From Escherichia coli (GTDB taxonomy: Bacteria > Pseudomonadota > Gammaproteobacteria > Enterobacterales > Enterobacteriaceae), in the NCBI RefSeq assembly GCF_013315695.1, contig NZ_CP054353.1: a stretch of DNA of 64,000 nt; one strand, written 5' to 3'. The notes beneath the pieces were generated by a model. It was not told the origin of the DNA. It ran no database searches and worked only from the letters and a program-made list of their open reading frames with translations. Of the stretch, positions 45,253-53,963 are shown piece by piece (position 1 is the first letter of the stretch; each line of letters starts with the position of its first letter). A program made the translations under genes and the position numbers.

Positions 45253-45392
45253 AAATTAGCTTCCTGTTATTAATAGAGTTAATGCTTCTCATTTTCATTG
45301 TAACCACAAACAGATGCAACCCCGAGTTGCAGATTGCGTTACCTCAAGAGTTGACATAGTGCGCGTTTGCTTTTAGGTTAGCGACCGAAAAT

Positions 45393-45415
45393 ATAAATGA
45401 TAATCATTATTAAAG
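45393..45415. promoter_or_regulatory. Fur box in the fepB-entC bidirectional promoter
   Basis: ATAAATGATAATCATTATTAAAG contains a near-consensus AATGATAATCATTAT. Confidence 0.7.
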
Positions 45416-45440
45416 CCTTTATCATTTTGTGGAGGATGAT

Positions 45441-49107: not shown

Positions 49108-50269
<1,162 letters not shown>

Positions 50270-50449
50270 ACCCGACAGAATAAAATGAGATTGCAGGAAA
50301 ATTCGGTTAACGGAGTGATCGAGTTAACGTTGTTAAGTTAAATATTGGTTTTAACTCTGATTTACATGGTTGCTGTGTTGTTAAATTGTACAAAGATGTT
50401 ATAGAAACAAAATGTAACATCTCTATGGACACGCACACGGATAACAACT

Positions 50450-52555
50450 ATGAACAAATCAGGGAAATACCTCGTCTGGACAGTGCTCTCTGTAATGGGA
50501 GCATTTGCTCTGGGATATATTGCTTTAAATCGTGGGGAACAGATCAACGCGCTGTGGATTGTGGTGGCGTCGGTCTGTATCTATCTGATCGCTTACCGTT
50601 TTTATGGGCTGTATATCGCCAAAAATGTGCTGGCGGTTGACCCGACGCGTATGACGCCCGCGGTGCGCCATAACGACGGGCTGGACTATGTGCCGACGGA
50701 CAAAAAAGTGCTGTTCGGTCACCATTTTGCGGCCATTGCCGGAGCAGGTCCGTTGGTTGGGCCGGTACTGGCGGCGCAAATGGGCTACCTGCCGGGGATG
50801 ATCTGGCTGCTTGCCGGGGTGGTTCTCGCCGGTGCGGTGCAGGATTTCATGGTGCTGTTTGTTTCTACGCGCCGTGACGGTCGCTCGCTGGGTGAGCTGG
50901 TCAAAGAAGAGATGGGGCCAACCGCCGGGGTGATAGCGCTGGTGGCCTGCTTTATGATCATGGTCATTATCCTTGCCGTGCTGGCGATGATCGTGGTGAA
51001 AGCCCTGACTCATAGCCCGTGGGGAACGTATACCGTTGCGTTCACCATTCCGCTGGCTCTGTTTATGGGGATCTACCTGCGCTATTTGCGTCCGGGCCGC
51101 ATTGGGGAAGTGTCGGTGATTGGCCTGGTATTCCTGATTTTCGCCATTATCTCTGGCGGCTGGGTGGCAGAAAGCCCGACCTGGGCACCGTACTTTGACT
51201 TTACCGGCGTGCAGCTGACCTGGATGCTGGTGGGTTACGGTTTTGTGGCGGCGGTGCTGCCGGTGTGGTTGCTGCTGGCCCCGCGCGACTACCTCTCAAC
51301 TTTCCTGAAAATCGGGACTATCGTCGGTCTGGCGGTAGGCATTCTGATTATGCGCCCGACGCTGACCATGCCCGCGCTAACTAAATTTGTCGATGGCACT
51401 GGCCCGGTATGGACCGGTAACCTGTTCCCGTTCCTGTTTATCACCATCGCCTGTGGCGCGGTGTCTGGCTTCCATGCGCTGATCTCTTCCGGCACCACGC
51501 CGAAGATGCTGGCGAACGAAGGGCAGGCGTGTTTTATCGGCTACGGCGGGATGTTAATGGAATCCTTCGTGGCGATTATGGCGCTGGTTTCCGCCTGTAT
51601 CATCGATCCAGGTGTGTACTTCGCTATGAACAGCCCGATGGCAGTGCTGGCTCCGGCAGGGACGGCGGATGTAGTCGCTTCTGCGGCGCAGGTGGTGAGT
51701 AGCTGGGGCTTTGCGATTACCCCGGATACGCTAAATCAGATTGCCAGCGAAGTGGGGGAACAGTCGATCATTTCCCGTGCGGGCGGTGCGCCGACCCTGG
51801 CGGTGGGGATGGCCTACATTCTGCACGGTGCTCTGGGCGGCATGATGGATGTGGCGTTCTGGTATCACTTCGCCATTCTGTTTGAAGCACTGTTTATTCT
51901 GACGGCGGTGGATGCAGGTACGCGTGCTGCGCGCTTTATGTTGCAGGATCTGCTGGGCGTGGTGTCTCCGGGCCTGAAACGGACCGATTCACTGCCTGCT
52001 AACCTGCTGGCAACGGCGCTGTGCGTGCTGGCTTGGGGTTACTTTCTGCATCAGGGCGTGGTCGATCCGCTGGGCGGTATTAACACTCTGTGGCCACTGT
52101 TTGGTATTGCCAACCAGATGCTGGCAGGGATGGCGCTGATGCTTTGTGCTGTGGTGCTGTTCAAAATGAAACGTCAACGTTACGCCTGGGTGGCGCTGGT
52201 ACCAACGGCCTGGCTGCTGATTTGTACCCTGACCGCAGGCTGGCAGAAAGCGTTTAGCCCGGATGCGAAAGTCGGCTTCTTGGCCATTGCTAATAAGTTC
52301 CAGGCAATGATCGACAGCGGCAATATTCCGTCGCAGTATACTGAGTCACAACTGGCGCAACTGGTGTTCAACAACCGTCTTGATGCCGGGTTAACCATCT
52401 TCTTTATGGTGGTCGTGGTGGTTCTGGCGCTGTTCTCGATTAAGACGGCACTGGCGGCATTGAAAGAGCCGAAGCCAACGGCGAAAGAAACGCCGTATGA
52501 GCCAATGCCGGAAAATGTCGAGGAGATCGTGGCGCAGGCAAAAGGCGCGCACTAA
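50450..52555 (+). CDS. cstA: Carbon starvation protein A CstA (peptide/pyruvate transporter family)
   Basis: 701-aa polytopic membrane protein, MNKSGKYLVWTVLSVMGAFALGYIALNRGEQ... Confidence 0.9.
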   Translation: MNKSGKYLVWTVLSVMGAFALGYIALNRGEQINALWIVVASVCIYLIAYRFYGLYIAKNVLAVDPTRMTPAVRHNDGLDYVPTDKKVLFGHHFAAIAGAGPLVGPVLAAQMGYLPGMIWLLAGVVLAGAVQDFMVLFVSTRRDGRSLGELVKEEMGPTAGVIALVACFMIMVIILAVLAMIVVKALTHSPWGTYTVAFTIPLALFMGIYLRYLRPGRIGEVSVIGLVFLIFAIISGGWVAESPTWAPYFDFTGVQLTWMLVGYGFVAAVLPVWLLLAPRDYLSTFLKIGTIVGLAVGILIMRPTLTMPALTKFVDGTGPVWTGNLFPFLFITIACGAVSGFHALISSGTTPKMLANEGQACFIGYGGMLMESFVAIMALVSACIIDPGVYFAMNSPMAVLAPAGTADVVASAAQVVSSWGFAITPDTLNQIASEVGEQSIISRAGGAPTLAVGMAYILHGALGGMMDVAFWYHFAILFEALFILTAVDAGTRAARFMLQDLLGVVSPGLKRTDSLPANLLATALCVLAWGYFLHQGVVDPLGGINTLWPLFGIANQMLAGMALMLCAVVLFKMKRQRYAWVALVPTAWLLICTLTAGWQKAFSPDAKVGFLAIANKFQAMIDSGNIPSQYTESQLAQLVFNNRLDAGLTIFFMVVVVVLALFSIKTALAALKEPKPTAKETPYEPMPENVEEIVAQAKGAH

Positions 52556-52667
52556 AGTCAGAGTGAGGGGGAATGTGCTGAGCGTTCCCCTTACTCTCAG
52601 CCCGAGCATGTTGATAGCAATTAAGCCCTCTTAATTCAGGAGGGCATTTGTATTACCGGAGGTTTAG

Positions 52668-52865
52668 ATGTTTGATTCACTGGCAAAAGCCGGAAAATAT
52701 TTAGGTCAGGCGGCGAAACTGATGATTGGTATGCCTGATTACGACAACTATGTCGAACATATGCGGGTTAACCATCCCGATCAAACGCCGATGACCTACG
52801 AGGAGTTTTTCCGTGAGCGGCAGGACGCGCGCTACGGTGGAAAAGGCGGCGCGCGCTGCTGCTAA
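52668..52865 (+). CDS. ybdD: YbdD (DUF466 small protein, CstA partner)
   Basis: 65 aa, [65 protein letters not shown]. Confidence 0.8.
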
Positions 52866-52874
52866 ATTTGTACG

Positions 52875-53963
52875 TCAGGCTTTAAACGATTCCACTTTTT
52901 CGAACGCTGCACGCAACGTATCCGGTGTCAGCGTGACCGGCAGGTAATGAATGGATTCCACCGGACGTAAGGTGTGGGCAATCACTTTGTCGATCTCCGC
53001 CTGATTATTGATATCCACTTCCAGCTCCGCCAGCGTAGTCGGCAGATGAAAACGCTGATACGCCCCGGTTAATTGCGCCAGCACATCATCCTGACCCAGC
53101 AAGGCGCTTTGCACCAGAATTCCGTAGGCGACTTTGGTGCCGTGGAGAAACTTCTCGGTTTGCGGCAGCACGGTCAGACCGTTATGCACGGCATGGGCCG
53201 CCGCCACACGCGTAAAACGATCGCCCAGACCACCGACCATTCCACCTCCGGCGATAATCGCATCCACCACATCGCAAAATGATTGCGTTAACTGGTGATT
53301 TTGCTGATCGCTCAGCGCCTGTTCGCTACTGTTTAACAAGACGTCGCGAATAGCCTGCGCATTATTGATCCCTAGCCGCACGGTTAGCGGCAACGTTTCT
53401 GGTTGCGGGGCCAGCACCACCGCTTCATACCATTTCGCCAGCGTGTCACCGATCCCCGCCAGCAGATATTGTTGCGGCGCGTTGAGGATAATCTCCGGTT
53501 CCACCAGCACCATAAAATTGGCGTCGTCGAAAATCTCATAATGCAGCGCTTGTCCGGCATCGTTGTACCAGACAGAGAGCGGTGTCCAGGCTGCGCAGGT
53601 AGCGGCGATCGTCGGAACGGCAACAAACGGCAGACCGAGACGGCGGGCGAGGGCTTTCGCGGTGTCGAGCAGTGCGCCGCCGCCGACGCCAATCACCACG
53701 CTGCGATCGTCACCGGACTCAGCCGCCAGTTGTTGTACATCGCTTTCGCTGCAATGACCACGAAACAAAATATGCTTTACCCCTGGCAGTTCAAACGCAG
53801 GCGGCAGTTTGGTTTGTGCCGCAGCAATGGCGCGTTCGCCGTAGATCCACACTGCGCGAGAAAGTTGTTCATCAGTGAAAAAATCGTGCAGGTGATTGAA
53901 ACTTCCGGGATGTGAAAAGTAGTTAGCCGGGCCGACGACCACGCGGATAGGATTGTGAGGCAT
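52875..53963 (-). CDS. ybdH: Iron-containing alcohol-dehydrogenase-family oxidoreductase YbdH (hydroxycarboxylate dehydrogenase)
   Basis: 362 aa, MPHNPIRVVVGPANYFSHPGS..., GGGALLDTAKA motif. Confidence 0.85.
   Translation of the reverse strand: MPHNPIRVVVGPANYFSHPGSFNHLHDFFTDEQLSRAVWIYGERAIAAAQTKLPPAFELPGVKHILFRGHCSESDVQQLAAESGDDRSVVIGVGGGALLDTAKALARRLGLPFVAVPTIAATCAAWTPLSVWYNDAGQALHYEIFDDANFMVLVEPEIILNAPQQYLLAGIGDTLAKWYEAVVLAPQPETLPLTVRLGINNAQAIRDVLLNSSEQALSDQQNHQLTQSFCDVVDAIIAGGGMVGGLGDRFTRVAAAHAVHNGLTVLPQTEKFLHGTKVAYGILVQSALLGQDDVLAQLTGAYQRFHLPTTLAELEVDINNQAEIDKVIAHTLRPVESIHYLPVTLTPDTLRAAFEKVESFKA

Follow-up and report, generated by a model that had tools for sequence, protein, structure and literature searches.

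We analyzed the spacer between cstA and ybdD in a 64-kb stretch of Escherichia coli DNA (hereafter the window), to which E. coli MS 21-1 shows 100% identity. Between the cstA stop and the ybdD start lie 112 nt, which hold two hairpins along with sequence related to the BoxC repeat family, as laid out below.

50450-52555, + strand: cstA, an open reading frame named from the annotation of identical E. coli records.
52553-52555, + strand: cstA stop codon TAA; the base of hairpin 1 begins 4 nt beyond it.
52560-52571, + strand: 5' arm of hairpin 1, AGAGTGAGGGGG, from the fold; it matches the G-rich end of a truncated BoxC copy (compare ...GGGGTGAGGG).
52572-52586, + strand: upper stem and loop of hairpin 1, corresponding by alignment to a shortened spacer of inverted BoxC pairs.
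52587-52597, + strand: 3' arm of hairpin 1, CCCCTTACTCT, identified by alignments as the BoxC G-rich end (C-rich strand shown).
52598-52610, + strand: BoxC far end, CAGCCCGAGCATG (compare CTGACCGAGCGCG), from alignment to K-12-type spacers.
52625-52645, + strand: hairpin 2, GCCCTCTTAATTCAGGAGGGC (GCCCTCTT-AATTC-AGGAGGGC), followed by ATTTGTATTA, from a terminator scan.
52658-52662, + strand: ybdD Shine-Dalgarno sequence GGAGG, read from the sequence, 5 nt before the ATG.
52668-52670, + strand: ybdD start codon ATG, read from the sequence.
52668-52865, + strand: ybdD, an open reading frame.

Hairpin 1 spans positions 52560-52597 on the + strand and folds at -23.2 kcal/mol into a structure of 16 bp with one bulged G (G52571) and a 5-nt loop. 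Shuffled sequences averaged -12.8 kcal/mol (z -3.75), with 1 of 200 shuffles as stable as the native sequence, and the entire cstA-ybdD spacer folded with a z of -2.78. The original prediction had described a stable 10-bp stem closed by a 16-nt loop. Its two 10-bp arms, GAGTGAGGGG (52561-52570) and CCCCTTACTC (52587-52596) with one G-U pair, were found as placed, and the stability of the stem was borne out by RNA folding of the spacer. While this lower stem stands, the supposed 16-nt loop does not: it pairs internally (AAUGU with GCGUU, including two G-U pairs), and an extra A-T pair (52560/52597) lengthens the stem at its base.

As a GC-rich, stable stem right after a stop codon, hairpin 1 could be read as an intrinsic (Rho-independent) terminator of cstA, but the bases after the stem (CAGCCCGAGCATG, starting CAGCCCGAGC) include no T-run or U-tract, in agreement with what had been predicted, and a terminator scan of the spacer flagged hairpin 2 as its only site. 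Further, no promoter-like site separates the stem from ybdD downstream, and ybdD is required for the function of CstA, with which it cooperates in pyruvate uptake (Hwang et al. 2018). We rejected the assignment to Rho-independent terminators for want of a U-tract, as the original prediction had anticipated, and consider termination of cstA at this stem highly improbable. Because the spacer lacks a promoter-like site (no sigma-70-like promoter was found within 52300-53000 when both strands were scanned) and the two proteins act together, cstA and ybdD are probably co-transcribed, with hairpin 1 included in the transcript. Direct translational coupling of the two genes, one of the roles initially proposed, is unlikely given the 112 nt between stop and start and the presence of a GGAGG belonging to ybdD itself. 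A search of the literature for transcript 3' ends or small RNAs at cstA-ybdD returned nothing relevant, the mentions of cstA being unrelated. On its other side, ybdD (+ strand) converges with hcxA/ybdH (- strand), the two stop codons lying 9 nt apart (52865-52875) with no terminator-like site between them, so that each transcript would either run antisense into the other gene or end farther on.

The origin of hairpin 1 can be traced through comparison with other E. coli spacers. Here a longer element is found in about three quarters of E. coli genomes, among them K-12, and in the alignment of these K-12-type spacers the same 5' arm (AGAGTGAGGGGGG) is followed by a longer loop than in the window and by a 3' arm (CCCCCTCAC) that runs on into CCCTCACCCTAACCCTCTCCCC-GAT-GGGGCGAGGGG. 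The opposite strand of this K-12-type element is the BoxC/PIT/TMECO type A sequence listed in Table 1 of Holder et al. 2015, and the K-12 copy between cstA and ybdD has been catalogued as an HPG1 element (Kaplan et al. 2016). To set the limits of the BoxC unit, we aligned this K-12 copy with five other K-12 BoxC copies, which yielded a repeat unit of ~56 bp, GCGCtCGGTCGGTCCCCTCGCCCC-loop-GGGGAGAGGGTTAGGGTGAGGGG. Both unit ends are present in the window (CCCCTTACTCT and CAGCCCGAGCATG), bracketing a core deletion of ~28 nt: the 3' arm of hairpin 1 is the counterpart of CCCCCTCACCCT in the BoxC copy that is intact in K-12-type E. coli, while the far end lies directly 3' of the deletion, which, relative to K-12-type spacers, removes the CCCTCTCCCC..GGGGCGAGGGG core.

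The rest of hairpin 1 finds its match in BoxC pairs. Its reverse complement aligns with the center of three K-12 inverted BoxC pairs (fepB-entC, ygfF-gcvP, and alx-sstT), where copy A ends in its G-rich stretch, the pair spacer follows, and inverted copy B begins. Specifically, the reverse complement of the loop region (AACGCTCAGCAC--ATT) aligns with AACAGCCAGCACTGGTGCGAACATT of all three pairs, and strain MRSN346647 carries a pair spacer of intermediate form, AACCCTCGGCACTATGCCAACATT. The reverse complement of the 5' arm aligns in turn with the start of the inverted partner copy (ACCCTCACC vs CCCCCTCACT), which in the window breaks off 4 nt away from the cstA stop; a match of ~12 nt, together with this position, suggests that the left copy is a BoxC end. 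The window also contains the fepB-entC spacer (45253-45428), from which the ~190-bp block that holds the inverted BoxC pair in K-12 is absent.

Thus, hairpin 1 belongs with BoxC by position and by the sequence homology of the unit ends, but not by a dispersed, multi-copy state: it occupies one place per genome, whereas the K-12-type element occupies a median of 16. Since it is single-copy, and since the 5' arm occurs once in the whole window, we rejected hairpin 1 as a dispersed repeat in its own right. An intact BoxC in the window was likewise rejected, as there was no core match in 64 kb: the core motif CCCTC(T/G)CCC-loop-GGGAGAGGG-(TTA or CCG)-GGGTGAGGG was not found in the window, nor did GGGAGAGGGTTAGGGTGAGGG match anywhere in it with up to 3 mismatches. 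The loss of the core also bears on whether hairpin 1 acts as DNA, through one of the structures suggested for BoxC/PIT/HPG elements (triplex, G-quadruplex, or cruciform). Its BoxC parentage and the triplex and G-quadruplex formation of BoxC in vitro speak for such a role, yet the triplex/G-quadruplex core is gone, a single G-run is left, and even intact elements have no established in vivo function, which makes action at the DNA level very improbable. Finally, short intergenic hairpins are common, with 2163 in the non-coding regions of K-12 (Holder et al. 2015), and hairpin 1 might on that account be a chance inverted repeat with no history. We regard this as extremely improbable in view of its stability relative to shuffles, its conservation across Escherichia species, and the homology of its arms and loop to the centers of BoxC pairs.

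We next consider how hairpin 1 is distributed. Within E. coli the spacer is highly polymorphic: it matched that of the window in 1326 of 5419 genomes, the others matching at the gene ends only, and hairpin 1 itself was present, as a single copy, in ~1322 of 5426 genomes. Nissle 1917 and ST131 genomes, which we take to be phylogroup B2, are also among its carriers. For a wider survey, species-representative genomes were scanned with YbdD, giving 80 loci, in 77 of which both the cstA 3' end and ybdD could be located; these 77 species loci, four E. coli loci, and the window made up a set of 82 spacers. Within this survey, hairpin 1 was carried by E. albertii, E. whittamii, two further Escherichia species-level genomes, and E. 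coli, and by no other genus. The original prediction had envisaged a control element of the conserved cstA-ybdD pair that should recur across Enterobacteriaceae, and this expectation failed, as the stem is missing from the orthologous spacers of ~70 non-Escherichia species. The same survey returned near-identical enterobacterial ybdD loci in records labelled Streptomyces sp. DH24 (a 465-nt contig), a "Bacillota bacterium" MAG, and a "Proteobacteria bacterium" MAG; for Streptomyces and Bacillota, contamination or mis-binning is the probable reason, while "Proteobacteria" is just a coarse label.

Within Escherichia, all 12 variants fold at -20 to -33 kcal/mol with a stem 1-7 nt past the stop, despite indels and substitutions, including indels of 9-19 nt that alter the length of the loop. 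Such persistence could reflect selection for structure, and we looked for covariation, which had been put forward as a check on the prediction, in the lower stem of seven distinct Escherichia variants. Because MAFFT placed the 3' arms out of register, we counted covariation after reducing each sequence to its two arms with an AAAA linker between them. In the lower stem, both sides of a pair had changed once (A-U to U-G, in E. albertii), alongside several changes that were uncompensated; covariation among the seven variants was not significant, the same score being reached by 140 of 500 shuffles. The stem is thus kept by sequence identity, its conservation is explained by the shared ancestry of a palindromic repeat, and lower-stem covariation provided no positive evidence of selection on the structure. 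Hairpin 1 was also not accepted as an Rfam-type conserved structured RNA, as it had neither covariation support nor an Rfam match (zero matches at E-values up to 10 in a scan of 50200-53100).

These patterns bear on the main competing explanation, in which hairpin 1 is a selected intercistronic element, serving to stabilize the message, to have it processed, or, close to the stop codon, to brake translation and so set the CstA:YbdD ratio. The retention of a hairpin in every Escherichia variant despite loop indels would fit such a role, as would the joint function of CstA and YbdD, the start of the stem 4 nt past the stop, inside the <16-nt range in which REP hairpins are reported to lower translation (Liang et al. 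2015, as summarized in PMC12306157), and the presence of some strong hairpin in 79 of the 82 Enterobacteriaceae spacers. Nonetheless, covariation is lacking, hairpin 1 is missing outside Escherichia, three species manage with spacers of 14-20 nt that hold no hairpin at all, an ancestral hairpin (hairpin 2) is already present in the window, and PIT/BoxC elements are reported to have shown neither promoter nor terminator activity (Holder et al. 2015, citing Maher and colleagues). Overall, we consider a selected role for hairpin 1 unlikely.

Hairpin 2, which the original prediction had missed, is the element of the spacer that is shared across genera. It ends 22 nt before the ybdD start, and folding it together with the flanking bases gives -14.3 kcal/mol (z -2.5). 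Spacers ranged from 14 to 195 nt across the set of 82, mostly 47-63 nt, and most non-Escherichia genera had a single GC-rich spacer hairpin; automated extraction scored at least 70 of the 82 spacers at a folding free energy at or below -12, although a few branched spacers were mis-scored in this step and the folds themselves are the primary evidence. The single spacer hairpin of Citrobacter and Salmonella (AAGCCCTCTCC...GGAGAGGGCGTTTG) is homologous to hairpin 2, which is the only part of the spacer with homology to these genera, and the consensus fold of the hairpin 2 homologues showed a stem conserved in sequence with little covariation. By sequence comparison, hairpin 2 is the ancestral, terminator-like hairpin of the spacer, and it is a candidate attenuator or stabilizer of the cstA-ybdD pair. 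A counterpart exists in the paralogous transporter/DUF466 pair of K-12, btsT-yjiX, whose 49-nt spacer holds a terminator-like hairpin (AGCCCCGC-UUCG-GCGGGGCU, then UUGUUCUU; -20.4 kcal/mol, z -3.2), and an intercistronic hairpin may therefore be a general feature of such pairs.

Other lineages have filled the spacer differently. Enterobacter-like genera carry REP-like spacer hairpins, and very large BoxC-type double palindromes (-60 to -90 kcal/mol) were seen in spacers of Enterobacter, Lelliottia, Leclercia, Phytobacter, and Pluralibacter, as well as in the unclassified Enterobacteriaceae genome RIT714. Invasion of this slot has occurred independently in several genera. The other Escherichia sampled have lost the 3' arm of hairpin 2 and, E. 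coli AGR6137 excepted, carry a REP just upstream of the decayed hairpin. B2-type E. coli (52617-52667 in the window) has an intact hairpin 2 and no REP, while outgroup Escherichia have a REP and a decayed hairpin 2, which suggests an old polymorphism or recombination.

Taken together, we think it likely that hairpin 1 is the collapsed center of an inverted BoxC pair behind cstA in Escherichia, a neutral remnant with at most passive effects. In this scenario, the 5' arm would be the last ~12 nt of one BoxC copy, truncated beside the cstA stop, the loop would be the shortened pair spacer, and the 3' arm would be the facing G-rich end of a second copy, which in the B2-type strain would have lost ~28 nt of core while retaining its far end. 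The hairpin would then exist through two inverted repeat ends that happen to face each other, and not through selection for structure. BoxC loci are far more strain-variable than control sites, and the core-deleting decay of BoxC has been termed the "palindrome effect" (Holder et al. 2015). The order of events can be read in two ways: slippage across the core's own hairpin may have deleted it time and again, or the absence of the core may be the old state, from which conversion by other BoxC copies rebuilt the K-12-type copy. The outgroup Escherichia species lack the BoxC core and share with B2 E. coli a nearly identical core-less junction (CTCT|CAGC), hence the core-less form may be old.

Such a remnant could still affect the message that contains it. 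Transcribed with cstA-ybdD, hairpin 1 would form a stem of -23 kcal/mol that begins 4 nt after the stop codon. REP hairpins, e.g., malE-malF, are known to block 3' exonucleases, and by analogy hairpin 1 may hold up 3'-to-5' exonucleases and spare cstA message that has ended or been cut downstream. It may also be a mild obstacle for the terminating ribosome, as reported for REP hairpins; to occupy the stop codon, a ribosome would have to melt the bottom 3-4 bp of the stem. According to the summary of Liang et al. 2015 in PMC12306157, ribosomes were reported to stall, and translation to fall, where REP hairpins lie <16 nt from a stop codon, and hairpin 1, a stable stem of -23.2 kcal/mol that starts 4 nt after the TAA, falls within the limits stated there. 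A broader proposal would have the cstA-ybdD and btsT-yjiX spacers selected to hold some strong hairpin, with lineages filling the slot with unrelated palindromes (an ancestral terminator-like stem, a REP, or BoxC pairs and their remnants) and hairpin 1 co-opted in this way in Escherichia. If so, hairpin 1 would tune CstA output or the CstA:YbdD ratio through slowed termination and an exonuclease block; we hold this to be quite unlikely.

The best-supported reading of hairpin 1 remains that of a leftover repeat whose effects on RNA, if any, are passive. Judged by its sequence, it is nothing out of the ordinary: it derives from a known repeat family, and its locus had already been catalogued in K-12. 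As such, it would provide a clean example of unstable BoxC palindromes decaying into regulatory-looking hairpins, and a caution for scans based on sequence only, in which repeat remnants can mimic regulatory stem-loops. For control of the CstA/YbdD pyruvate transporter, hairpin 2, with its btsT-yjiX counterpart, is a better candidate than hairpin 1.

Among known systems, hairpin 1 is closest to BoxC/PIT/TMECO/HPG1 elements (Bachellier; Hoyne and Maher; Holder 2015; Kaplan 2016). It lies at the same locus as the K-12 copy, its arms correspond to the G-rich ends and its loop to the pair spacer, the far end is kept, and, like those elements, it is intergenic at a locus that varies among strains. 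It differs in lacking the 34-37-nt triplex/G4 core, and hence is no intact member, in being single-copy, and in having a left copy reduced to ~12 nt. A further comparison is with REP/BIME hairpins, as stabilizers of mRNA 3' ends and as down-regulators of translation near stop codons (Liang, Rudd and Deutscher 2015). Like them, hairpin 1 is extragenic, palindromic, and stable, lies no more than 15 nt from a stop codon, and is part of a probable operon transcript, and in other Escherichia strains a true REP lies ~20-120 nt downstream in the same spacer. However, hairpin 1 itself has no REP consensus (GCCGGATG...CATCCGGC), and REPs occur in this spacer only in other strains or species, so that we rejected it as a REP/BIME; effects on stability, stalling, or tmRNA would extend to it only by analogy. 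With Rho-independent terminators and intercistronic attenuators, hairpin 1 shares a GC-rich stem after a gene end but differs in having no U-tract, and this class fits instead hairpin 2 and the spacer hairpin of K-12 btsT-yjiX.
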